This document shows positions 30,087 through 45,394 of a stretch of 64,000 nt of DNA, piece by piece (position 1 is the stretch's first letter; each line of letters begins with the position of its first letter). The position numbers and the translations under genes were made by a program. The notes under the pieces were generated by a model. It searched no databases. It worked only from the letters and a program-made list of their open reading frames with translations, and had not been told where the DNA came from. Location: positions 44,577 through 108,576 of the IMG/VR virus record IMGVR_UViG_3300034284_000578; one strand, 5' to 3'. Source of the DNA: a virus.

Positions 30087-30125
30087 ATCTCCTTGGTTTT
30101 ATAAATAATGTAGAACCAAGGAGAT
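30087..30125 (+). promoter_or_regulatory. Late promoter TATAAATA inside an RBS-sequestering hairpin upstream of gp13
   Basis: Perfect 12-bp inverted repeat atctccttggtt (30087-30098) / aaccaaggagat (30114-30125); TATAAATA at 30100-30107; SD AAGGAG in the right arm. Confidence 0.85.
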
Positions 30126-30132
30126 TTTACAT

Positions 30133-30957
30133 ATGGCAAAACCTTCAACAAGGGAACAACTTAAAGATTATTGTCTAAGACGACTCGGTTATCCTGTTGT
30201 ACAAATCAACGTGGATGATTCGCAAATAGAGGATCGTGTAGACGATGCTTTACAGTTTTTTGCCGAATACCATTTTGATGGTGTAGAGAGAGTTTATTTA
30301 AGAAAACAAGTCACTCAGCAAGACATAGAGCGGGGTTATATAGATTTAACCCAACCAACTTTGGCTGCAACTGACGATGGTATAGAAATTAAAGCAGCAC
30401 CCGCATTAGACCCAGATGGTAATTCAATAATTAGTGTAATTCGTTGCTTTCAATTATTTGATACTTTGGGTGGTTTGGGTATGTTTGATGCAAAGTATCA
30501 AATCGCTTTAAATGACTTATACGGGTTAAGAACCAACACATATGGTGACTCGTTAATTGGGTATAACATAACAAGAAGTCATATGCAAATGCTTCAGGAT
30601 ATGTTGACCCCCGAGAAGATGATTGAGTTTAGCCGTGTCACAAACAGAATTTATGTGGAAACAAATTGGTCAGAAAAAATGACTAAGGGTGATTACTTGG
30701 TATTTGAGGCATATAAAATTCTTGATCCTTCGTTGTATCCAGAAATCTATAATGATCGTTTATTAAAGATGTACTTGACTGCTTTAATTAAGCAACAATG
30801 GGGATTGAATTTATCGAAGTTTAGCGGTATGAGTTTACCGGGTGGTGTTTCATTTAATGGTGCTAATATGGCATCTGAAGCAAAATCAGAAGTTGAAAAA
30901 ATAGAAAACGAAATTCAAGCCAAATACGAACTCCCACCACAAGGATTTATAGGATAA
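30133..30957 (+). CDS. gp13: Neck protein gp13
   Basis: MAKP..R.QLKDYCLRRLG.PV.QINVDD.Q..DR.DDALQ.F.EYHFDG; KQQWG.NLSKF.G..LPGGV. Confidence 0.95.
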   Translation: MAKPSTREQLKDYCLRRLGYPVVQINVDDSQIEDRVDDALQFFAEYHFDGVERVYLRKQVTQQDIERGYIDLTQPTLAATDDGIEIKAAPALDPDGNSIISVIRCFQLFDTLGGLGMFDAKYQIALNDLYGLRTNTYGDSLIGYNITRSHMQMLQDMLTPEKMIEFSRVTNRIYVETNWSEKMTKGDYLVFEAYKILDPSLYPEIYNDRLLKMYLTALIKQQWGLNLSKFSGMSLPGGVSFNGANMASEAKSEVEKIENEIQAKYELPPQGFIG

Positions 30958-34679: not shown

Positions 34680-36506
34680 ATGGCAATTCAAATTAGCCCA
34701 GGCGTAAATGTAACAGAAAAAGATGTCACACTTTTGGTGCCAGCAATCGCCACCACACCAGCAGGTATGATTGGCTTGTTCCAATGGGGACCAGGCAACG
34801 AACCAGTGACAATTACGAGCGAAAAAGAACTTTCAGAAGTATTTTATAAGCCAGCAAAAGCATCAGGCGTAATGACCGATGCCACCAAATACAACAGGTG
34901 GTGGTGGTCTGCTGCCAATTTCTTGTCTTACGGTAACAATATTAAAATTGTAAGATTTATTAACGATAGTGCTGGTTCATTTACCGCAACCTCAGGAACT
35001 GCTGCGGTTGCAGGACATAATCTTTGCGGATTGACATCATTTAGAGCATATACCCCAGTAGTTGGAAATGGATTCTGGGGAGCAAAGTATCCAGGCGAAC
35101 TCGGCAACAGCATCAAGGTAGTTGTTTTAGATTACTATGCTGCTGAAACATATGATGCCGATACAGACGGAAACGCCAATCAATATATCGACTACATTGG
35201 TAATTTTGATGGTTTGCCAGGAACATCCCCTTGGGCAGAAACAGTAACCGGAGCAGAAATTAAAGACGAGATTCACGTTCTTGTAATTGATGCTGATGGT
35301 AAAATTTCTGGTACTGCTGGTACAATTCTTGAAAAATTTGCATACCTTTCAAAGGCATCAAACGCAGTAAATCAAAACGGAACAACTAATTATTATAAAG
35401 ATGTTATTAACAATGAATCAAAGTATGTTTGGTCATTATATCATTTAGATAACGCAAGTGCTGCAAATAATTCATCAAATGTAAGTGCATTTGGTGCTGT
35501 AAGTTCCACTGGTACTACACCGTGGGGAACCGCCGTAACAACTACTACATCCGCCTTTAAAGTAGTTAAAACTGGTGAAAATCTTGTTGTTACTATGCTC
35601 TACGGTGGATTGGTTGGAAATACACCAAATGATAACGATATCGCAGAAGCATTTAACACATACATGGGTGATCCAGAAATTATCGATGTTTCAATGTTCA
35701 TTACCGGACCACTTGGTAAAACAGCGGCTTATCGTGTAACAGAAATAGCAGAAACAAGAAAAGATGTTGTGGCATTCGTGTCCCCAACACCAACAAATGG
35801 TTTCAATCAAACACCAAGTGCATATTTGAATGACATCATCACATTTAGAACAAATGGAGATTCCACTTCATACGGTGTAGCCGATACTGGTTACAAATTG
35901 CAATACGACAATTATAACGACGAATATGTTTATATTCCTCTAAATGCAGATATTGCAGGATTGTGCGCTCGTACAGACACAACAAACGATCCTTGGTTCT
36001 CTCCAGCCGGATTAAACCGTGGTGGAATTAACAGAGTAATCAAACTTCCTTTCAATCCAAATCAAGCACAACGCGATGATTTGTATAAGATTGGAATGAA
36101 TCCTGTAGTTTCATTCCCCGGAATTGGTCCTGTTCTTTACGGAGACAAGACTCTCTTAAGTAGACCATCTGCCTTTGACAGAATCAATGTTCGCAGATTG
36201 TTCATAATTCTTGAGAAATCAATTGCAACTGCCGCCAAGTTCCAACTCTTTGAATTCAACGATGAGTTTACAAGAGCACAATTTGTAAACTTGGTAACTC
36301 CATTCCTCAGAAATGTTCTTGGAAGAAGAGGTATCACCGATTTCCGTGTAGTTTGTGATGAAACAAACAATACAGCACAAGTAATCGACTCAAACAACTT
36401 TGTAGCAGATATCTATATCAAACCAAACAAATCAATCAACTTCATTCAACTCAACTTCATTGCTACACCAACTGGTTTGAGCTTTGAAGAGGTCGTTGGA
36501 GCCTAA
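34680..36506 (+). CDS. gp18: Tail sheath protein gp18
   Basis: SPGV.V.E.D, G.FQWGP, PWFSPAG..RG, SAFDRINVRRLF and SINFIQLNF motifs. Confidence 0.97.
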   Translation: MAIQISPGVNVTEKDVTLLVPAIATTPAGMIGLFQWGPGNEPVTITSEKELSEVFYKPAKASGVMTDATKYNRWWWSAANFLSYGNNIKIVRFINDSAGSFTATSGTAAVAGHNLCGLTSFRAYTPVVGNGFWGAKYPGELGNSIKVVVLDYYAAETYDADTDGNANQYIDYIGNFDGLPGTSPWAETVTGAEIKDEIHVLVIDADGKISGTAGTILEKFAYLSKASNAVNQNGTTNYYKDVINNESKYVWSLYHLDNASAANNSSNVSAFGAVSSTGTTPWGTAVTTTTSAFKVVKTGENLVVTMLYGGLVGNTPNDNDIAEAFNTYMGDPEIIDVSMFITGPLGKTAAYRVTEIAETRKDVVAFVSPTPTNGFNQTPSAYLNDIITFRTNGDSTSYGVADTGYKLQYDNYNDEYVYIPLNADIAGLCARTDTTNDPWFSPAGLNRGGINRVIKLPFNPNQAQRDDLYKIGMNPVVSFPGIGPVLYGDKTLLSRPSAFDRINVRRLFIILEKSIATAAKFQLFEFNDEFTRAQFVNLVTPFLRNVLGRRGITDFRVVCDETNNTAQVIDSNNFVADIYIKPNKSINFIQLNFIATPTGLSFEEVVGA

Positions 36507-36524: not shown

Positions 36525-37070
36525 ATGGACATTAGCAAGTTTACATCTAAATTCGATGGCGGAGCAAGATCAAATCTGTTCCAATTCAGAGTCAGTAATT
36601 TACCATCAGGCATTCCTGCTTTCAATGCGGACGATCAAATCATCCACGTTAAAAGCATTCAATTGCCAGAAACAACAGTTGGTGAAATTCCTGTAAATCA
36701 CATGGGAAGAATTTACAAATTCCCAGGCGATAGAGTTTATAATGACGTATCACTTACTATCTTGAGTGATGGTAGTGATATGCGCGTAAGACATTTCTTC
36801 GAAGCATGGAACCATGTTTGGAATCGTCATTTTGCAAACGTAGGATTGTTGCCAAATGCTGAAAACTTGAACGCTGTAGTTGAATTAATTCAATTGGATC
36901 GCGGTCACAACCCAATCAGAACATATAAACTACAAAAAGCATGGTGCAGTGATGTCTCTGCCGTAGATTTGTCACACGACAACAATGACGCTTTAGTTGA
37001 ATTTACAGTAACATTGAAGTACCACTTCTTCGAAGTAGACGGTAAGAACGGTCTTCACTTAAGACGTTAA
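36525..37070 (+). CDS. gp19: Tail tube protein gp19
   Basis: GGAR.NLF, GR..K.PGDR, FEAW and EFTVT..Y motifs; follows gp18. Confidence 0.93.
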   Translation: MDISKFTSKFDGGARSNLFQFRVSNLPSGIPAFNADDQIIHVKSIQLPETTVGEIPVNHMGRIYKFPGDRVYNDVSLTILSDGSDMRVRHFFEAWNHVWNRHFANVGLLPNAENLNAVVELIQLDRGHNPIRTYKLQKAWCSDVSAVDLSHDNNDALVEFTVTLKYHFFEVDGKNGLHLRR

Positions 37071-37101: not shown

Positions 37102-38739
37102 ATGGCATTTGATATATTCGGTTTTACTTTTGGTAGAACTAAAGAGCAACAACAATCTGTTCCCTCAGTAATTCCCCCGGCTATGGACGATGGCGCATCC
37201 TTCGTCCAAGCCGGTGGTTTTCAAGGTTGGTATGTAGATCTTGATGGTACTGTCAAGTCTGATGTAGATTTGGTTAAAAAGTATCGTGAAATGAGTCTCC
37301 ATGCTGAAGTTGAAATGGGCATAGAAGATATTGTGAATGAAGTAATAACAGAAGATGCTTCCGGTACATTTATTAAATTAAATATAGACAAAGTAGATTC
37401 TAGTATTATTCCAGAAGAAGTTAAAAAAGTTTTATATGACGAATTTAAACACATTTTATTCTTATTGGATTTCAATAGAAAGTGTTATGAGATTGTTCGT
37501 CGCTGGTATATTGATGGTAGGTTATATTACCACATTATTCTGGAAGATGATCCACGACAAGGAATAAAAGAAGTACGACAAGTAGATCCTCTTAGAATTA
37601 AAAAAGTAAGAGAAATAAAGAAAAAACAAAAAGTAAATGGTGTTGATGTTATTGATGGTGTAGAAGAATATTATTTGTACACCGTTCAAGAAAGATTTAA
37701 CATGTATGATACCACTCAAGGTATCAAGTTATCTCCCGACTCCATTAATTACTGCCACTCAGGTTTATTTGATTACGGCACAAAAAGAGTAGTAAGTTAT
37801 CTTCATAAAGCAATTAAACCATTGAACCAATTAAGAATGGTCGAAGATGCTACCGTAATTTATCGTTGGTCAAGAGCACCAGAGCGTAGAATATTCTATA
37901 TCGACGTTGGTTCTTTGCCAAAAAATAAAGCAGAGCAGTATCTGAGAGACATCATGTTGCGTTATCGCAATAAGATTACATACGATGCCGGTACTGGCGA
38001 AATCCGCGACGACAGAAAACACTTGAGTATGTTGGAAGATTATTGGCTCCCCCGTCGTGAAGGTGGTAAGGGAACAGAAATTCAAACACTATCCGGTGGT
38101 CAAAATCTAGGCGAAATGGAAGATGTAAAATACTTCCAAAAGAAACTGTTTAGAAGTTTGAATATACCCATGTCACGTTTAGAAGCGGACAATGGATTTA
38201 ACATGGGTAGAGCAGCAGATATTAGCAGAGACGAATTAAAGTTTGCTAAATTTATTTCTCGCCTTCGCTCTCGGTTCTCAGAGTTGTTCTTAAACTTTAT
38301 GAGAACTCAATTGATTGCAAAAGGAATAGTAGATATTGACGAATGGAATAAGATTTGTCAATATATCCGATTTGACTATTCTACAGATTCAATGTTCTTA
38401 GAATCTAAGCAATCTGAAGTGCTAAAAGACAGAATGGCAATTTTGAGAGAAGTTTCCGATTATTCTGGTAAGTATTTCTCGGAAGAATGGATTAGAAAGA
38501 ATATTCTTCATCAAACAGACGAAGACATTCAATTGATTGATTCTCAAATTGAACAAGAAAAAATGATACAAGAACAAAAGCAAATGGAAGAACAAATGCG
38601 CGCCGAGCAATTGGCAGCACAAACTATGGGTGTTCCTGGCGGTGCGCCTGGAGCGGGAGCATCCGCACCAAGTCAACCAACAGCAGTTGCACCACAGCAA
38701 TCAACGGGAGTAGATTACGATGCCAGCAGCCTTTTATGA
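37102..38739 (+). CDS. gp20: Portal vertex protein gp20
   Basis: RRWYIDGR, SYLHKAIKPLNQLRM.EDA.VIYR..RAPERRIFYIDVG and EDYWLPRREGG.GTEI motifs. Confidence 0.98.
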   Translation: MAFDIFGFTFGRTKEQQQSVPSVIPPAMDDGASFVQAGGFQGWYVDLDGTVKSDVDLVKKYREMSLHAEVEMGIEDIVNEVITEDASGTFIKLNIDKVDSSIIPEEVKKVLYDEFKHILFLLDFNRKCYEIVRRWYIDGRLYYHIILEDDPRQGIKEVRQVDPLRIKKVREIKKKQKVNGVDVIDGVEEYYLYTVQERFNMYDTTQGIKLSPDSINYCHSGLFDYGTKRVVSYLHKAIKPLNQLRMVEDATVIYRWSRAPERRIFYIDVGSLPKNKAEQYLRDIMLRYRNKITYDAGTGEIRDDRKHLSMLEDYWLPRREGGKGTEIQTLSGGQNLGEMEDVKYFQKKLFRSLNIPMSRLEADNGFNMGRAADISRDELKFAKFISRLRSRFSELFLNFMRTQLIAKGIVDIDEWNKICQYIRFDYSTDSMFLESKQSEVLKDRMAILREVSDYSGKYFSEEWIRKNILHQTDEDIQLIDSQIEQEKMIQEQKQMEEQMRAEQLAAQTMGVPGGAPGAGASAPSQPTAVAPQQSTGVDYDASSLL

Positions 38740-39319
38740 ATTTAATATAGAACAAGGTTCTGATTTTATAACATCAGTAAAGGCGATGAAACCCGGCGGT
38801 GGTATTTTTCGCTTTATTCCAAAAGCAAATCAAACTGTTTGGACTGGTACAACTTTAAACATTGATGTGCCTGAAGAAATTAAGTTGTTTAAATCAACAG
38901 AATCTGCTGCATTCGGTTGGATGAAAGGTATACCATCTAGTACATTTTTGACGGTAAGAAGTAAAGTAAAAGATAATAAAGGTGTTTTACAAATACAAGG
39001 AACTAGAGTCTATACATTTAATGGTTCTACCAAAAGAATAACAACTACTAGTTTTAGTCCAGAGGCCTCAACCAAAGAACTAATAGAATTTACATTAGTT
39101 CCAGACAATACCGAATATAATTTAACTATGAGAATGCCTGCTGGCACAACCTGTGGAACAAATGGTAACGCACCAACAGGAACAACATGTTACAGTGGAA
39201 AATATCTTTATGATATTGAACTGGAATATAAAATTGGAGATGAGGGAGAAACACCAACCCCATTTGTTATTCGTTTATTGCAAGGAAGAATGACATTTAA
39301 TCCTAACGTAACCACGTAA
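38720..39319 (+). CDS. Putative virion adaptor/anchor protein (Ig-like, BppU-N-like)
   Basis: F.IEQG.DF N-terminus and G.Y.YDIE....RLLQG.....P.VT C-terminus, typical of small T4-like structural proteins that precede fibres. Confidence 0.6.
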   Translation: MPAAFYEFNIEQGSDFITSVKAMKPGGGIFRFIPKANQTVWTGTTLNIDVPEEIKLFKSTESAAFGWMKGIPSSTFLTVRSKVKDNKGVLQIQGTRVYTFNGSTKRITTTSFSPEASTKELIEFTLVPDNTEYNLTMRMPAGTTCGTNGNAPTGTTCYSGKYLYDIELEYKIGDEGETPTPFVIRLLQGRMTFNPNVTT

Positions 39320-39320
39320 A

Positions 39321-41639
39321 ATGGCAACTAATTTTAAGATATACGTCAGTAATTTTCCACAAAAGACCGCCTATAGAAGAGGCGCAACTATAGACGTATA
39401 CCAAATAAATAAAATCATTTACACCCAAGCACAAGAAATAGATAATTTAAACTTAGCAGGTGAATTGTATGAAGATGCTATAGGAATTAAAGGAGATTCT
39501 TGTACTAGTGGTTTAATTGGTTGCGATGAAGCATTCGTAGCACCAAATCCAAATGAATGTAGTGGTGGAGAAAGAGGACCAGCAGGACCAGCAGGTCCAC
39601 AAGGACCTGCCGGCCCAACAGGACCCCAAGGACCTGCTGGTGGTGGTGCTAGAATATTTTGCGGTTATCTTCAAGGACCACCAGCACCACCGGCTGGAGA
39701 AATTTCAATTGAATGTTTAAAAAGCGCAACTGGTTATGTTGTAAATAAAAATGGTGCAGCACTTGGTGGTACAAATCCATTTAGTCCCGGTTCTGGATCT
39801 AATTTAAATAATTTTCAACATAACTTTGGTACTACTGGTGGAACTCAGTATGTCATAGGGACTAATGGTAGTCCAGTACAAGGAAATAATTGTAGTAGCC
39901 CTTCTCCCGCACAAGATAGATTAGATGAATTTTTTGATCCACCAAAATATATTCACACTCCGGTATTTAAAGGTTCAAATGTTAATGAAACTTGTTATTC
40001 ATCAACTCAATGGACATTTGGTGAATATTTAAACGCATTTGGTCAAGGATCAGCAGAACTTGGTAGTGGTTTGAGTAATTTTTGTCGAAATGGGGCAAAT
40101 GCAGCAAACAATAGTGCATCTGGATTAATATTCGTCCCAACACAATCAATATACGGTGGTGGTAACGCTACTAGAATGGAAGATTGGTGGGAAATATTAA
40201 AGGGAGCAGATGGTAACGGTGGTAATGGACTATATGACTCATTAGTAGACAATAATCCAGATTGTGGTCCAGAAGGACCATCATCATCACCACCAATAGC
40301 AGATCAGGGTGGTGTATTAAATAGTCAATGCACTGAAACCGGTGGAACTCCTCCTTCTTCTACACCATTAGAGGGAAATGACAATCCCTGCAATGGTGGA
40401 TGCAATAATCCTATTGCAAATTGTTCAGAGTTAACAGATGGTGATATTTTTATCGACGCAACTAACGGAGTAATGTATTTCTACTCAGGGGGAGCGTGGT
40501 CAAGTTCCGGTGTCCCTTTAGGGGGTGAGTCTGCTTGCGATGGACAAGCAGACGGAGGACCAGATTTTACATCAGCAGATGAGTGCCCACAAATAACTTG
40601 TTTTTGCCCACCGTGTGAAGAATGTCCAGATCCATGTCCAGATCCATGCACCGGATGCACCAGTGGTTGTATAACAAATCAATGCTGTCCAGATGGTGAA
40701 CCTAGTTTAATACTTTGCGGTCCGCCAAATACAGGGGGTTGTCCACCTGGACAATGCCCGAGACCAGATGGATGCGGTTCGTGCGGAAGTTGTGATGGAA
40801 GCACCAATCAATTCAATAGTGCTATGGTATTTCCAGATGAAATGATTACAGAAAATGCTAGTGTTTTAAATACACTACTAAACACTTTAAATGCAAGTAA
40901 TCTTGACTATTATGTTTCTGGAACTATGGCACTGGAAGCATACTTAAATGGAAGTGGATTCCCTGGCAAACAAAGAATGGGTGATTTTGATTTTGTTATT
41001 GATAGAAAAGATCTTAAAACATTTAATAATTTAGTTCAAGATAATTTTTATTTAGATATTATTACTGTAGAGGCACCATTCATGTCAAGAGATGATGCAA
41101 TGCCTCAGTTGTCCTTGATAAGTAAAACTAATAATTACGCTCCTTATTTTGATCCCATAACTATACCTGTTATTTTATCGGGTTCTGAAGAAATATGGTC
41201 AGGAGTAACTATTCCTAAACCAAGTGAATTTGGACAAAAAAGTTTTAAAACTATAAATTATGGAGGAAAAAGAAACTTATCATTTAAGTGTATTCCTCTA
41301 TACTATCCTATATTACAAAAAGTAAGAGCTGGCCGTCCAAAAGATATAATAGACTTAAAGGTTTTATATTTTGCTGGTTTAATAACTGAAGATGTTTTAT
41401 CTGAATTTACTCCAACTGATTTGGAAAAATACAACGAAATAGTATCTTACTTTGGAGATGGTTCTAATGCTGCATTTTTTGCAAGAAAAAACTACACTAT
41501 TGATCAATTACAAAATTTGGCTAATAATTACAATAATTTTAAATATGCACCAGCATTTAAAAAGAAATGGACATGGGTTCCAGCATATGGTGGATGGGTA
41601 GACCCAGAGGACATAATAACGCCCGGTTCCGGTTCTTAA
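39321..41639 (+). CDS. Collagen-like, Cys-rich fibre protein with a C-terminal nucleotidyltransferase-like domain
   Basis: (G-X-Y)8 at 39567-39641; GDIFID...G.MY.Y..G.W fibre motif; Cys-rich tract at ~40580-40795; then YYVSG..AL...R.GDFDF...K..AGRPKDIIDL. Confidence 0.6.
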   Translation: MATNFKIYVSNFPQKTAYRRGATIDVYQINKIIYTQAQEIDNLNLAGELYEDAIGIKGDSCTSGLIGCDEAFVAPNPNECSGGERGPAGPAGPQGPAGPTGPQGPAGGGARIFCGYLQGPPAPPAGEISIECLKSATGYVVNKNGAALGGTNPFSPGSGSNLNNFQHNFGTTGGTQYVIGTNGSPVQGNNCSSPSPAQDRLDEFFDPPKYIHTPVFKGSNVNETCYSSTQWTFGEYLNAFGQGSAELGSGLSNFCRNGANAANNSASGLIFVPTQSIYGGGNATRMEDWWEILKGADGNGGNGLYDSLVDNNPDCGPEGPSSSPPIADQGGVLNSQCTETGGTPPSSTPLEGNDNPCNGGCNNPIANCSELTDGDIFIDATNGVMYFYSGGAWSSSGVPLGGESACDGQADGGPDFTSADECPQITCFCPPCEECPDPCPDPCTGCTSGCITNQCCPDGEPSLILCGPPNTGGCPPGQCPRPDGCGSCGSCDGSTNQFNSAMVFPDEMITENASVLNTLLNTLNASNLDYYVSGTMALEAYLNGSGFPGKQRMGDFDFVIDRKDLKTFNNLVQDNFYLDIITVEAPFMSRDDAMPQLSLISKTNNYAPYFDPITIPVILSGSEEIWSGVTIPKPSEFGQKSFKTINYGGKRNLSFKCIPLYYPILQKVRAGRPKDIIDLKVLYFAGLITEDVLSEFTPTDLEKYNEIVSYFGDGSNAAFFARKNYTIDQLQNLANNYNNFKYAPAFKKKWTWVPAYGGWVDPEDIITPGSGS

Positions 41640-41656
41640 ACTTAAATAAACTAAAG

Positions 41657-41664
41657 TATAAATA
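41657..41664 (+). promoter_or_regulatory. Late promoter TATAAATA
   Basis: Exact T4 late consensus, intergenic, upstream of the prohead core genes. Confidence 0.8.
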
Positions 41665-41684: not shown

Positions 41685-41960
41685 ATGTCTACAGAAAAAA
41701 TTATAGATTCTTTATTTGATAACAACTTGGAGCAATTCCGCAAGCAAGTCCATGCTGCTTTATTTGTAAAAACCGGAGAATATATGAACTCCGCAAAACA
41801 AGTAGTCGCTGGCGCCATGATGAATCCTCCAGAAGAAGTACAAGAGGAAAAAAAGAAACTATCTAAAGAGCAATTAGCAGCAGTAAGAGCACCACATGAT
41901 AAAATTACCCGTGGAGACATTATTGCTCTTGCTCAAAAGAACGCAAAGAAAAAGGGGTAA
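41685..41960 (+). CDS. Prohead core protein, gp67-like
   Basis: Short helical protein (IIDSL..NN...F...V.AAL..K......AK..VA..M) directly upstream of gp21. Confidence 0.65.
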   Translation: MSTEKIIDSLFDNNLEQFRKQVHAALFVKTGEYMNSAKQVVAGAMMNPPEEVQEEKKKLSKEQLAAVRAPHDKITRGDIIALAQKNAKKKG

Positions 41961-41965
41961 TATAG

Positions 41966-42613
41966 ATGAAACTTATTACTGAAACAAGACAACAAGACAT
42001 TCAATATGTTTCTGAAGCCGCAGAGGGTGGTAAGAAGTCTTACTTCATTCGTGGTGTTTTCGCAGAGTCCAATAAAGTAAACAAGAATCAACGATTTTAC
42101 GAAGGACCAGTCATGGAGATGGCTGTACAAACATACAATGATACCTTTGTAAAAAATAGTCGCGCTTTGGGTGAACTTGGACATCCAGAAGGACCAACTG
42201 TTAATTTAGAAAGAGTATGCCACATGATCAAAGATCTTCATGTGGAGGGTAGTCAAGTAATGGGTAATGCAAAGATCATGGACACCCCATATGGTAGAAT
42301 TGTACAAAACCTTATTGATGAAGGTGCTAAACTTGGAGTGTCTACCCGTGGTATGGGTTCATTGGCTGAGCGCAATGGAGTCAATTATGTGCAAAAAGAC
42401 TTCATGCTTGCCGCTGTCGATGTAGTTGCAGATCCCTCTGCACCAAACGCATTCGTAGACGGCATCATGGAAGGTAAAGAATGGGTTTGGGACAATGGTG
42501 TTTTCAAACCAACAATCATTGAGAATTACAAAAAACAAATTGAAAAAGCAGGATCAAGAAACTTGGAAGAAGCCAAATTGAAAGTATTCCGCGATTTCTT
42601 ATCTAAATTGTGA
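41966..42613 (+). CDS. gp21: Prohead protease gp21
   Basis: MKLITE, RALGELGHP.GPT.NL.RV.H, LGVS.RGMGSL and D.VADPSAP.AFV.GIMEGKEW motifs. Confidence 0.97.
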   Translation: MKLITETRQQDIQYVSEAAEGGKKSYFIRGVFAESNKVNKNQRFYEGPVMEMAVQTYNDTFVKNSRALGELGHPEGPTVNLERVCHMIKDLHVEGSQVMGNAKIMDTPYGRIVQNLIDEGAKLGVSTRGMGSLAERNGVNYVQKDFMLAAVDVVADPSAPNAFVDGIMEGKEWVWDNGVFKPTIIENYKKQIEKAGSRNLEEAKLKVFRDFLSKL

Positions 42614-42617
42614 AATA

Positions 42618-42625
42618 TATAAATA
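42618..42625 (+). promoter_or_regulatory. Late promoter TATAAATA (gp22)
   Basis: Exact consensus, intergenic; SD AAGGAG downstream. Confidence 0.85.
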
Positions 42626-42655: not shown

Positions 42656-43870
42656 ATGGACCCCAAGAAAATTGCAGAAGAAATCGTAAAAGATTTATTC
42701 GATACATATGAACTCGTCGAAGAAAAAGAAGAAAAGGACGAGGAAGAAGAAGGCGAAGAAGAAGAAGAAGCCGGTGAGGAAGAAGAAGGCGAAGAAGAAG
42801 CCGGTGAGGAAGAAGAAGGCGAAGAAGAAGGTGAAGAAGAGGCAGAAGACAAGGCTCCAGTTGCTAAAGCAGTTGGTAATGCCATGAAGGGTTCTGCTAC
42901 TACATCTGCTGCCGCTTCAATCTCCCTTAAAGGTCAATTACCACAACCAACAAAAGGTTCTGGACATGTCCACGATGCCTTGGGTGGTGGTGTAAAGGAT
43001 GCACATGGCGGTGGTGAGCAAATCATCCAACCAACAGGTGGAAATCCCGGTGCATTGGCTGCATCTCTCAACATGAAGCCATCATTCACTTCTCCACAAG
43101 CACCACAAATGACCAGTGAGCAATTAGCCTCTGATATTACAGCAATCTTTGGTTCACAAGAACTATCTGAAGATTTTGTAAAGAATGCTGCTTCAATTTA
43201 TGAAGCCGCAGTTGCTTCAAAGGTTGAAACAATTGCAGAAGCATTAGTCGAACAATTTGAAGAAAAGTTGGTAGAAGAAGTAGAAACTGTAAAGTCTGCT
43301 TTGGTAGAACAACTTGATAATTATTTGGCTTATGTTGTCCAAGAATGGGCAAAAGAAAATGCAGTTGCCATTGAAAATGGTTTAAGAACAGAAATTGCAG
43401 AAGACTTCATCAATGGTTTGAAGAATCTTTTTGCGGAATCTTATGTTGAAATTCCAGAAGAAAAAGTAAATCTGTTTGATGAACTTTCGGAAGCGGTCGA
43501 AACTCTTGAAGGTAGAATAAACGAAGAGATTGAAAAGAACGTAGTTCTCAATCAAGAAATTAGTTTACTAACCGCTCAAAGAGTATTTGCTGAAGAAACA
43601 AGAGGATTGACTGTTCTTCAAGCAGAAAAAGCAAGAGAGATTGCAGAAAATCTCGAATACTCTGGAGAAGAAGATTTCCGCAGTAAAGTAAAGACCTTGG
43701 TTGAAGGTGTTGTTTCTGGAGCCAAAAAGGTTGCACCAAAGAATGTTCAAAAGGTAAATGAACAAATTACACTTTTGGAACAAGCAACTGAAGATGAGCC
43801 AGAGCAAGAAACACTCTCTCCACTCATGGAACTTTATTCAAACACAATTAACAGAACACTAAAATCTTAA
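42656..43870 (+). CDS. gp22: Prohead scaffold protein gp22
   Basis: LSEDF...A..IYEAAV, D.YL.YVV.EW..EN.VAIE.GLR.EIAE.F..GLK.LF.E motifs; acidic N-terminus. Confidence 0.95.
   Translation: MDPKKIAEEIVKDLFDTYELVEEKEEKDEEEEGEEEEEAGEEEEGEEEAGEEEEGEEEGEEEAEDKAPVAKAVGNAMKGSATTSAAASISLKGQLPQPTKGSGHVHDALGGGVKDAHGGGEQIIQPTGGNPGALAASLNMKPSFTSPQAPQMTSEQLASDITAIFGSQELSEDFVKNAASIYEAAVASKVETIAEALVEQFEEKLVEEVETVKSALVEQLDNYLAYVVQEWAKENAVAIENGLRTEIAEDFINGLKNLFAESYVEIPEEKVNLFDELSEAVETLEGRINEEIEKNVVLNQEISLLTAQRVFAEETRGLTVLQAEKAREIAENLEYSGEEDFRSKVKTLVEGVVSGAKKVAPKNVQKVNEQITLLEQATEDEPEQETLSPLMELYSNTINRTLKS
42761..42830 (+). repeat. 30-bp tandem duplication in the Glu-rich tract of gp22
   Basis: gaagaagaagccggtgaggaagaagaaggc occurs twice plus a partial third copy (EEEAGEEEEG). 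Confidence 0.85.
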
Positions 43871-43887: not shown

Positions 43888-43895
43888 TATAAATA
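43888..43895 (+). promoter_or_regulatory. Late promoter TATAAATA (gp23)
   Basis: Exact consensus upstream of SD AAGGAG and ATG 43931. Confidence 0.85.
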
Positions 43896-43930: not shown

Positions 43931-45394
43931 ATGGACCCTAATCGTCAAATGATCACAGAATCTGCCCGCAAAAAGTGGCAACCAATCCTTGAGCACAAGG
44001 CATTGCCAGAAATCAAGGACAGTTATAAAAAGACTGTAACAACAATCCTCTTGGAGAACCAAGAGCGCGCACTCCGCGAATCATACCAAGGTATTGCCGG
44101 TACAGGACTCGGTAACATTGGTGGGTTTGAAGCCGGTGCAACCTCAACAACTGGTACTGGTATCGATTCATTCGATCCAATCATGATCAGTTTGGTTCGT
44201 CGCGCTATGCCAAATTTGATGGCTTACGACATCGCTGGTGTTCAACCAATGAACGGCCCAACCGGCTTGATCTTCGCAATGAAGACAAAGTATCAAAACG
44301 CTGGTACAGGAACAATTGGTGCCCGCGCTGGTAATGCCAGTGAAGCACTGTTCAAGGAAGCCAACACAAGTTGGTCCGGTGAAACTGGTGCTGCTGGTGA
44401 CATGGGAGATATCTTCCAAGATGACGCCGGTTCAACCGATGGACGCTTCGAAGCCGGTCGTGGATTTGCCACATCTAAGGGTGAAAAACTCGGAGATGGT
44501 ACAAATAACTTTAACGAAATGTCTTTCACAATCGAAAAGACAGCCGTTACAGCCAAGACTCGCGCCCTCAAGGCAGAGTACACAACAGAACTCGCTCAAG
44601 ACCTCAAGGCCGTTCACGGACTTGACGCTGAGACAGAGTTGGCTAACATCCTCTCAACCGAAATCATGTTTGAAATCAACCGCGAGTTGGTTCGTCAAAT
44701 CTATGATGTCGCTAAGTTGGGTTGCCAACAAGCCGACCTCGCCGGTAAGGCTTCAGGTGGTGGTTTGAATGGTGCCGCAGGTGGTGGTACATATAACCTC
44801 GAACTCGACTCCGATGGTCGTTGGAGTGCTGAAAAGTTCCGTGGTTTGACCTTCCAAATCGAGCGCGAGTGCAACGTAGTAGGTGCTGAGACTCGTCGTG
44901 GTAAGGGTAACTTTATCATCACAAGTCCAGACGTTGCTGCTGCCCTCAGTATGAGTGGTTTGCTCGACTTCTCTCCAGCCTTCAGTGGTGCTCTTAACAC
45001 AGACGTTAATGGCAACACCTTCGCTGGTACACTCCACGGTGGACGTATCAAGGTTTACATTGATCCATATTCAATGCCAACCCACACAGAAACCTTCTCA
45101 CCAATCAATTTCGTATGCGTAGGATATAAGGGAACAAGTCCATACGACGCTGGTCTCTTCTACTGCCCATACGTTCCATTGCAAATGGTAAGAGCCGTTG
45201 ATACAGGTACATTCCAACCAAAGATTGGTTTCAAGACCCGTTATGGTATGGTAAGTAACCCATACGTTCTCAATGCAAGCAGTCTCCCAGACGCTGAAAC
45301 ATTGACACGTAGACGTAATCAATACTACCGCATCTTCCGCGTAGATAACCTACACGGTAACGACGCCACATACAACCCAACAACCGCTAACTAA
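43931..45394 (+). CDS. gp23: Major capsid protein gp23
   Basis: LVRRAMPNLMAYDIAGVQPM.GPTGLIFAM, RALKAEY..ELAQDLKAVHGLDAE.EL and FQPKIGFKTRYG motifs. Confidence 0.99.
   Translation: MDPNRQMITESARKKWQPILEHKALPEIKDSYKKTVTTILLENQERALRESYQGIAGTGLGNIGGFEAGATSTTGTGIDSFDPIMISLVRRAMPNLMAYDIAGVQPMNGPTGLIFAMKTKYQNAGTGTIGARAGNASEALFKEANTSWSGETGAAGDMGDIFQDDAGSTDGRFEAGRGFATSKGEKLGDGTNNFNEMSFTIEKTAVTAKTRALKAEYTTELAQDLKAVHGLDAETELANILSTEIMFEINRELVRQIYDVAKLGCQQADLAGKASGGGLNGAAGGGTYNLELDSDGRWSAEKFRGLTFQIERECNVVGAETRRGKGNFIITSPDVAAALSMSGLLDFSPAFSGALNTDVNGNTFAGTLHGGRIKVYIDPYSMPTHTETFSPINFVCVGYKGTSPYDAGLFYCPYVPLQMVRAVDTGTFQPKIGFKTRYGMVSNPYVLNASSLPDAETLTRRRNQYYRIFRVDNLHGNDATYNPTTAN

Follow-up and report, generated by a model that had tools for sequence, protein, structure and literature searches.

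The 772-residue fusion protein and its locus

The window analyzed in this study, a stretch of 64,000 nucleotides (nt), is part of the 108.6-kb IMG/VR virus record IMGVR_UViG_3300034284_000578, whose source is an uncultured, aquatic, T4-like myophage. Between the genes for the portal protein gp20 and a small gp67-like protein, the window contains two open reading frames (ORFs) on the + strand, at positions 38720–39319 and 39321–41639, as an earlier reading of the letters (hereafter the sequence-only reading) had reported. The first ORF encodes a protein of 199 amino acid residues. The second encodes a protein of 772 residues, in which a collagen-containing, Cys-rich body is followed by a Cys/Pro-rich hinge and by a C-terminal domain with the predicted fold of a nucleotidyltransferase (NTase). 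Homologs with identities of 38–97% show that both ORFs are real genes.

The N-terminal segment of the 772-residue protein (residues 1–82; 39321–39566) is conserved, possesses three Cys residues in invariant alignment columns and is presumed to be the attachment end. Next to it is a collagen-like stretch (residues 83–109; 39567–39647) of eight uninterrupted G-X-Y triplets (residues 83–106) and a terminal GGG. Its Gly positions were invariant in 9 homologs, and eight triplets make a short stretch for a helix that is to be stable in the absence of a nucleating domain. Within the body, DGDIFIDATNGVMYFYSGGAW (residues 373–393; 40437–40499) is the block of highest conservation; it was also invariant in 9 homologs and matched no family. 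The hinge (residues 406–500; 40536–40820) contains 18 Cys and 16 Pro in 95 residues and differs in length and sequence among homologs; the last 272 residues of the protein contain a single Cys. The collagen stretch, the GDIFID block and the Cys/Pro tract listed in the sequence-only reading were all present in the translation. The fibre-type label that it gave to the DGDIFID motif is backed by no Pfam, PHROG or PDB match beyond the collagen triplets. PHROG tail-fibre matches were limited to the collagen region (residues 53–163), and the Pfam Collagen matches were likewise found only there. The body, about 440 residues long, is restricted to this phage lineage. Neither the body nor the whole protein had a tblastn match in cultured phages, and the 10-kb region had no megablast match.

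The same architecture was found in three homologs, P0004, P0005 and P0015, whose polypeptide lengths are 801, 802 and 722 residues, respectively. The identities to the window protein were 39–50% for their bodies and 40–85% for their NTase domains. In addition, the reading frames of two contigs from other metagenomes (L001 and L006) run uninterrupted across the junction. The fusion thus exists in at least four diverged versions from independent assemblies. The 772-residue ORF is a genuine, recurrent fusion and not an assembly artefact, and this recurrence contradicts the chimeric assembly that the sequence-only reading had allowed for. Moreover, the G+C content at third codon positions (GC3) was even across the 199-residue gene, the body and the NTase (0.17–0.20), and was 0.29 in gp20, 0.32 in gp21 and 0.45 in the ORF at 43931. 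A foreign composition of the NTase was considered for its low GC of 0.31 and rejected, as its GC3 is the same as that of the body and the 199-residue gene; the low GC results from the amino acid content. An internal translation start that would release a free NTase was also rejected, given that no Shine-Dalgarno sequence precedes M502 or M508.

The family is very small. Six matches were found in 1.84 billion representative proteins, one of which (P0010, a repetitive protein) was spurious, and searches of 5.8 billion clusters gave only one or two. Contig searches identified four viral contigs and one metagenome contig, and no member of the NTase family was found in 185,579 species genomes. Aside from the short fragments P0006, P0007 and P0009, the NTase domain was seen only inside the cassette. 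A free-standing copy was not clearly seen; P0006 lacks helix 1 and is possibly a fragment.

The 199-residue protein matched phrog_1084, a family of unknown function, weakly (E = 1e-4). Both of its ends are strongly conserved, and its middle (residues ~100–160) is hypervariable and rich in indels, so that the lengths of its alleles range from 181 to 218 residues. Such variation would be expected if a conserved scaffold carried an exposed loop region. The sequence-only reading had called the protein an adaptor, a label that no Pfam, PHROG or PDB match backs, and tblastn found no match to it in cultured phages.

The late genes of the window are in T4 order, with the cassette between gp20 and the gp67-like gene. 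The tail tube gene gp19 (36525–37070) was identified by Pfam and PHROGs, the portal gene gp20 (37102–38739) by PF07230 (E = 6e-167), the small prohead-type, gp67-like gene of 91 residues (41685–41960) by phrog_1064 (E = 0.003) and the protease gene gp21 (41966–42613) by PF03420 (E = 4e-32). The ORFs at 30133, 32968, 34680, 42656 and 43931 were assigned to gp13, gp17, gp18, gp22 and gp23, respectively, by their place in T4 order alone; that at 34680 encodes 608 residues, as it does in the contig L008. The nearest cultured relatives of the portal were just 51–53% identical to it and come from Pelagibacter phage Mosig, the cyanophages P-SSM4 and S-CAM22 and Methylophilales phage Melnitz. In such relatives, one to five small unrelated ORFs (five in Mosig and one in P-SSM4) lie between gp20 and gp21, which makes this interval a variable slot. 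No paralogs were found elsewhere in the 108-kb genome.

The genes of the cassette are tightly packed. The last 20 nt of gp20 are also the first of the 199-residue ORF, and the 772-residue ORF begins 1 nt past the stop of the 199-residue ORF and ends 18 nt ahead of the octamer TATAAATA (41657–41664, + strand). This octamer, a T4-type late-promoter consensus, precedes the gp67-like gene by 21 nt and delimits the cassette on the right. Further copies, at 42618–42625, 43888–43895 and 30100–30107, precede the ORFs at 42656, 43931 and 30133, respectively, and the four copies stand 21–36 nt upstream of their genes. The total of seven copies in the window was not above chance; those on the + strand are all intergenic and ahead of late genes. 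The octamer at 41657 presumably acts as a late promoter. Given the tight packing and the end just before TATAAATA, the cassette genes are at the 3' end of the gp18-gp19-gp20 run, a placement that points to late expression of both. Counts of sigma-70-like promoters and terminators inside the cassette were not above those in shuffled sequence. The gp67-like gene itself is very variable. Its product is 91 residues long in the window, L008 and L016, 138 residues in L001 (1954–2370) and 131 residues in L009 (6634–7029), and the gene is 51% identical in nucleotides to that of L001, beside a gp21 that is 87.5% identical.

Fold and candidate active site of the C-terminal domain

The AlphaFold model of residues 501–772 (mb821b45bf1ae) was built from an alignment of seven sequences and had a predicted local distance difference test score (pLDDT) of 66.5 and a predicted template modelling score of 0.63. 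Domain residues 5–212 (domain numbering plus 500 gives protein numbering) were mostly above a pLDDT of 60, and the last 60 residues were below 50. The model thus comprises a two-lobed domain proper (residues 505–715; 40833–41465, + strand) and a conserved C-terminal tail of about 57 residues (41466–41636, + strand) without a confident fold. Similar to NTases, its first elements are in the order H-E-H-E-H-E. The top Foldseek matches were all NTases, with MenT1 first (E = 1e-5), followed by MenT3/TglT, TM1012, 5uvd, ANT(2'')-Ia, LnuA and JHP933, many at a probability of 1.0. With VIA-align, 163 of 194 residues were aligned to MenT1 at a root-mean-square deviation of 3.2 (Z = 12.5); the Z scores for ANT(2'')-Ia and TM1012 were 11.3 and 10.4, respectively. 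A scan of 48,161 PDB representatives that was independent of Foldseek placed NTase folds at ranks 1–11, after which Z fell below 7 and the matches were unrelated helical fragments. Moreover, the neighbors of the domain in an ESM Atlas feature search were clusters of AbiEii, DUF6036, DUF2204 and Aminoglyc_resit, and the viral structure library BFVD gave only weak matches, which were also to NTases (poly(A) polymerases and LicD). The C-terminal domain is therefore modelled as a two-lobed NTase fold of the Pol-beta superfamily, of the MenT1/ANT(2'')/TM1012/JHP933 kind.

At the sequence level, nothing significant was found in Pfam, NCBIfam, PHROGs or PADLOC for the domain or for P0005, P0006 and P0015, and phmmer and three profile searches against PDB sequences returned only non-significant matches. 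The best PDB match of the family hidden Markov model (HMM) was 5uvd, an NTase-like antigen of the fungus Paracoccidioides brasiliensis and the only PDB protein that this HMM touched. The alignment ("..DY.v.G...R.gDfDiVi") brings the motifs of both together and coincides exactly with hG[GS]...DxD, but was not significant (E = 0.43).

Residues were compared across five domains with 38–85% identity, those of the window protein, P0004, P0005, P0015 and P0006. The invariant polar residues were G534-T535, D555, D557, D561-R562, D579, K602-T603-N604, K656, K667, K674-D675 and D678. According to DSSP of the model, G534-T535 (40920–40925, + strand) is an hG[GS]-type motif at the junction of beta1 and alpha2. 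S533-G534-T535 closes the model strand at domain residues 30–34, and D555-F-D557-F opens the strand at 56–60. D555-F-D557 (40983–40991, + strand) is the predicted metal-binding DxD motif on beta2 and aligns to EDVD of 5uvd in the non-significant match described above. D579 (41055–41057, + strand), which is in the model strand 76–82 (beta3), is a candidate third carboxylate. Finally, K667...K674-D675-x-x-D678 (41319–41354, + strand) is located in the helical lobe, in model helices 161–170 and 173–184, and is a candidate for MenT motifs III/IV. In MenT1, D41, D43, K137 and D152 are essential (PMC10435456). D555/D557, K667 and D675/D678 correspond to them in kind, and the residue-level match is a candidate one. 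A Ser/Thr two residues ahead of the first Asp, which is the auto-phosphorylation site of MenT proteins (T39 in MenT1), was not conserved in the domain family. All catalytic residues expected of such a fold, namely the G-T pair, the DxD motif, the third Asp and the Lys and Asp of the helical lobe, are thus apparently kept.

The sequence-only reading had listed these C-terminal motifs, all of which are present, with the DxD motif, the third Asp and K...KD..D invariant across the family. Its suggestion of a Pol-beta-superfamily NTase agrees with AlphaFold, Foldseek, VIA-align and ESM Atlas, by which the nearest structures are those of the MenT/AbiEii-ANT(2'')-TM1012 kind. It had also named the lack of an NTase-fold match or of aligned Asp residues as evidence to the contrary; such a fold was found, with conserved carboxylates. 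Its assignment to the AbiEii group, however, was not supported as family membership. No Pfam match to the AbiEii/MenT family model (PF08843/DUF1814) was found at E up to 10, the PF08843 search of the phage genome was empty, and neither PADLOC nor any other NTase sequence model matched. Moreover, no antitoxin gene (AbiEi/MenA) is adjacent, as the fibre body is fused upstream, and the late-promoter consensus and the gp67-like gene are downstream.

Similar to MenT1 (Rv0078A) and the AbiEii DUF1814 toxins, of which MenT1 was the best structural match, the modelled domain has a two-lobed layout, a DxD motif on beta2 and a candidate Lys and Asp in the helical lobe. Different from them, it has only ~13–14% identity, matches neither PF08843 nor the defence-system models of PADLOC, lacks a conserved equivalent of MenT1 T39 and is fused to a collagen-like late phage protein with no antitoxin gene, whereas they are free toxins. 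The antibiotic NTases ANT(2'')-Ia and LnuA as well as TM1012, JHP933 and 5uvd were aligned over nearly whole chains (Z = 9–11), but they have no significant sequence similarity to the domain and none of them is part of a structural phage protein. The domain has the MenT1-type NTase fold and probably the chemistry of these enzymes. As no Pfam, NCBIfam, PADLOC or PDB sequence model was significant, it is an orphan NTase family by sequence and is best described as a new and very small one.

Exchange of the 3' cassettes and selection

The contig L016 is nearly identical to the window on both sides of the NTase (flanks of 96.4 and 95.6% identity), with blastn breakpoints at 40633 and 41643. The exchangeable 3' cassette of the window (40634–41642, + strand) thus comprises the rest of the hinge, the NTase domain and the stop codon. 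In its place, L016 carries a different segment of 1218 nt, which encodes a short Cys/Tyr-rich fibre end and, as a separate gene, a DUF6734 protein of 333 residues (PF20508, E = 1e-37 for the orthologs in L008 and L009; the L016 copy is ~98% identical to that of L008). No DUF6734 gene was found in the record from which the window comes. A 12-bp tandem duplication, TGTCCAGATCCA x2, which encodes CPDPCPDP (40623–40646, + strand), is at the left recombination breakpoint; the L016 homology ends at 40633. In addition, P0011 is 97% identical to the window protein over residues 1–420 and then has a different tail, and a third allele, P0016, has a long Cys-rich tail without the NTase. Given that near-isogenic phages lack the NTase, the protein works without it in sister phages.

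The NTase block also occurs on diverged backgrounds. Between the window and L001/L006, it was 98.4% identical, whereas the identities were 54–64% for the fibre body, 78% for gp20, 87.5% for gp21, 51% for the gp67-like gene and 76% for gp22. This difference argues for recent transfer between diverged phages. Four independent metagenome contigs (L002, L003, L004/L006 and L012) have one of their ends within the NTase block, namely at domain residues 100–101, 133 and 159, which is the usual behavior of assemblers at a polymorphic cassette common to diverged genomes.

The alternative cassette, a Tyr-rich fibre tip of 30 residues plus the separate DUF6734 gene, behaves similarly. Between L016 and L008, gp19, gp20, the gp67-like gene, gp21 and gp22 were 99.2–99.8% identical and DUF6734 97.7%, whereas the 199-residue gene and the fibre body were only 54 and 61% identical, respectively. 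The 199-residue gene and the body are thus evidently exchanged as a pair. The identity returns to 97–100% exactly 90 nt ahead of the fibre stop codon, so the last 30 residues (…CYYYNGYHYPG…) travel with DUF6734. Judged from these comparisons, the NTase is a replaceable, horizontally mobile 3' cassette, one of two alternatives, and both cassettes recombine freely onto diverged fibre bodies. Such exchange at the locus fits the alternative tips that the sequence-only reading had proposed to look for. Within the T4-type head module, which is otherwise highly conserved, the locus as a whole is modular at three levels: adaptor and body form a pair, tip and accessory gene form a cassette, and the fused enzyme forms another cassette.

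Co-transfer of a fibre tip and a downstream accessory gene is known from T4 gp37 tip/gp38, lambda stf-tfa and Mu S-U. Similar to these systems, the last 30 fibre codons and DUF6734 move as a block of 97–100% identity onto bodies that are ~60% identical, and the NTase cassette occupies the same tip-plus-accessory slot. Two points differ: DUF6734 could not be related to known fibre chaperones, and the accessory part of the NTase allele is fused. The AlphaFold model of DUF6734 had a pLDDT of 33. No PDB match, no match in the genome collections and no paper mentioning DUF6734 were found. ESM Atlas gave only weak leads of GT-A type, and a PHROG match annotated as nucleotidyltransferase was not significant (E = 0.16). 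A relation of DUF6734 to glycosyltransferases or NTases is not claimed; its hhalign probability against the NTase family was 0.2.

The start of DUF6734 also varies. In L016 (9538–9560) and L008 (9472–9494), the listed DUF6734 frame has a TTG start and a 23-nt overlap with the fibre stop; in L009, DUF6734 starts with ATG 3 nt past the fibre stop. This arrangement suggests that the fibre tip and DUF6734 are translationally coupled. The NTase allele ends in …YGGWVDPEDIITPGSGS (41580–41636, residues 754–772) and the short-tail allele in …YNGYHYPGIIVAPGGV (L008, 9440–9494). The two ends have a loose Y-x-G-aromatic…P…I-I-x-x-P-G-x-G pattern in common without DNA homology, which could be chance or a common terminal peptide.

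The ratios of nonsynonymous to synonymous substitution rates (dN/dS) were 0.03 for the portal, 0.30 for the fibre body and 0.35–0.83 for the 199-residue gene. Across six contigs, the near-identical NTase blocks differed by 13 distinct replacement changes and one silent change. No replacement affected a carboxylate or a Lys, one was T603S, and about half were in the unmodelled C-terminal 80 residues. By a binomial estimate, a dN/dS of 0.3 or less is rejected (P ~0.002). The active site is conserved and the periphery changes fast, which suggests that the chemistry stays the same while the interacting surface varies.

Possible roles of the fused NTase

The 199-residue gene and the fibre body are hypervariable within an almost invariant head and tail backbone. 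In the 772-residue protein, in addition, the N terminus is conserved, a collagen stretch and a Cys/Pro hinge are present, and the 3' end behaves like a classical fibre tip with a co-travelling accessory gene. Both observations suggest that the pair forms a host-facing appendage, with the 772-residue protein as the fibre and the 199-residue protein as its holder. Because the catalytic set is invariant while the periphery varies, it is likely that the NTase is a working enzyme, or at least has a working nucleotide/metal site.

Given these results, we propose that the 772-residue protein would be a trimeric virion appendage held by its 199-residue partner, with the NTase as a working enzyme tethered at the far end. 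Because nucleoside triphosphate (NTP) or nucleoside diphosphate-X (NDP-X) donors are confined to the interior of cells, the enzyme would work in infected cells while particles are being assembled. There, a hydroxyl acceptor, either on the appendage or on a molecule attached to it, would receive a nucleotidyl or phospho-alcohol group, and the enzyme would thereby take over the role that the Tyr-rich tip and DUF6734 have in the other allele. This proposal of an active, tethered enzyme that works during assembly is the most economical and the most likely of the readings considered here; it is tentative, and we regard it as possible rather than probable.

Several observations weigh against it. The confidence of the structural model is moderate, the sole sequence alignment to a solved NTase (5uvd, E = 0.43) is not significant, and the metal site is a putative one, placed by invariant residues and model strands. 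Apart from the eight collagen triplets, nothing ties the body to known fibres: no homology of the remainder to a known fibre or virion domain was found with Pfam (9 members), PHROGs or tblastn against 50,697 phage records, and the virion location is a prediction from the genes. Near-isogenic phages manage without the NTase. An equal role of the two cassettes is an analogy only. The 13:1 excess of replacement changes also fits relaxed constraint and is indistinguishable from a dN/dS of 1 (P ~0.16). Finally, it is uncommon for an enzyme to be fused 1:1 to its own substrate.

The NTase fold may alternatively have been reused as a non-catalytic, distal receptor-binding domain, whose metal/phosphate site might grip a phosphorylated surface glycan. 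The domain is in the place of an alternative C-terminal tip and is exchanged as fibre tips are, it has spread horizontally among diverged phages, and replacement changes dominate in it. Moreover, NTPs are absent outside cells, and glycan phosphotransferases of the FKRP/LicD type are among the structural neighbors (Z = 7.4–8.5). However, the periphery varies around a complete and invariant catalytic set. In binding tips, the binding site is usually what varies, and the carboxylates are usually lost from non-catalytic NTase folds. MenT1 and ANT(2'') are also monomeric in crystal structures, unlike trimeric tips (PMC10435456). We consider a purely binding tip rather unlikely.

Somewhat more doubtful is a delivered effector, in which the packaged protein, or an NTase cleaved off from it, would enter the next host and act as a MenT-type tRNA/RNA NTase or as an anti-defence enzyme. 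T4 Alt is a head-packaged ADP-ribosyltransferase, and delivery here would parallel Alt and the internal proteins of T4, or the NTases of MuF-fused and polyvalent proteins. The gene is in the head module between the portal and prohead-core genes, the closest fold is that of the tRNA-modifying toxin MenT1, and a presence/absence polymorphism with fast surface evolution is typical of conflict genes. An I-x-E triplet, which we take to be the cleavage consensus of the T4 prohead protease gp21, is at the first NTase helix (I-T-E, residues 509–511; 40845–40853). This triplet is short and not found in all members: it is present in three of five homologs (the window protein, P0004 and P0015) and not in P0005 or P0007. 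Among the injected proteins of phages and plasmids, fusions of minimal NTases to ArdC-N and of RelA/SpoT domains to MuF have been described (Iyer et al., 2017; PMC5512222), so a particle-coupled NTase is not without precedent. The parallel to these proteins and Alt is that an enzyme of a conflict-type superfamily would be physically joined to a protein of the particle, with its gene in the company of morphogenesis genes. None of the polyvalent/MuF proteins, however, has a collagen stretch or a Cys-rich body (PMC5512222), and delivery is a candidate by analogy. A collagen triple helix and a body with 31 Cys are not features of known ejected proteins either, and no MuF, ArdC-N or capsid-targeting signature was found with Pfam or PHROGs.

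Two further explanations are very unlikely. In the first, the C-terminal domain would nucleate the collagen-like trimer, as the C-terminal intramolecular chaperones of other fibres do, and catalysis would be irrelevant. Collagen-like helices need a trimerisation nucleus, and the cassette replaces the native C-terminal tail and a downstream gene, which is reminiscent of tip-plus-chaperone pairs. Like collagen-like fibres with Peptidase_S74, the 772-residue protein has an N-terminal anchor, a collagen stretch and a C-terminal globular domain; one collagen-only match, P0017, carries PF13884. Unlike in these fibres, the globular domain here has the predicted NTase fold and matches neither Peptidase_S74 (PF13884) nor any other chaperone family. 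Its structural relatives are not trimers, and a folding role leaves the invariant catalytic residues unexplained. In the second explanation, the NTase would be a passenger or decaying domain, an accessory gene whose fusion, at a recombination hot spot, resulted from the loss of a stop codon and which has by now become almost neutral. The gp20–gp21 gap is variable in relatives such as Mosig and P-SSM4, near-isogenic phages lack the domain, and the 13:1 ratio is compatible with neutrality. Nevertheless, no stop or frameshift was found in any of at least eight contigs, the catalytic residues stay invariant even between domains of 38% identity, diverged backgrounds have recently acquired the block, and no free-standing copy was clearly seen. 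Finally, an assembly chimera or sequencing artefact that joined a fibre gene to an unrelated NTase gene can practically be dismissed: although L002, L003, L004 and L012 end or start within the NTase region, the same junction and architecture occur in independent samples and with independent assemblers, in sequences that are 38–85% divergent, and codon GC3 is uniform across the cassette.

Phage fibres and spikes carry hydrolases, lyases and esterases. We know of none that carries a nucleotidyltransferase, a class that needs an activated nucleotide donor. A limited literature search found no fibre-NTase fusion, and neither this collagen-fibre context nor this NTase family was found described. 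The fusion is conserved, keeps its predicted active-site residues and moves between phages as a cassette. If the particle were modified by the tethered enzyme, this would be a new kind of post-translational chemistry of virions; if the enzyme were delivered, the MenT/AbiEii toxin fold would be linked to phage offence. It is unlikely, in our estimate, that the NTase is an active, virion-borne and exchangeable module of host interaction. Were it so, its chemistry would be one never seen on phage appendages. The NTase might then mark the fibre with a nucleotide or phospho-alcohol that is read by a host receptor, run in reverse, phosphorolytically, on a phosphodiester of the host surface, or enter the cell as a MenT-like effector, and its swap with the Tyr-tip/DUF6734 cassette would alter host range or defence evasion. 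The near-isogenic natural pairs with and without the NTase are a ready-made comparison for finding its role.

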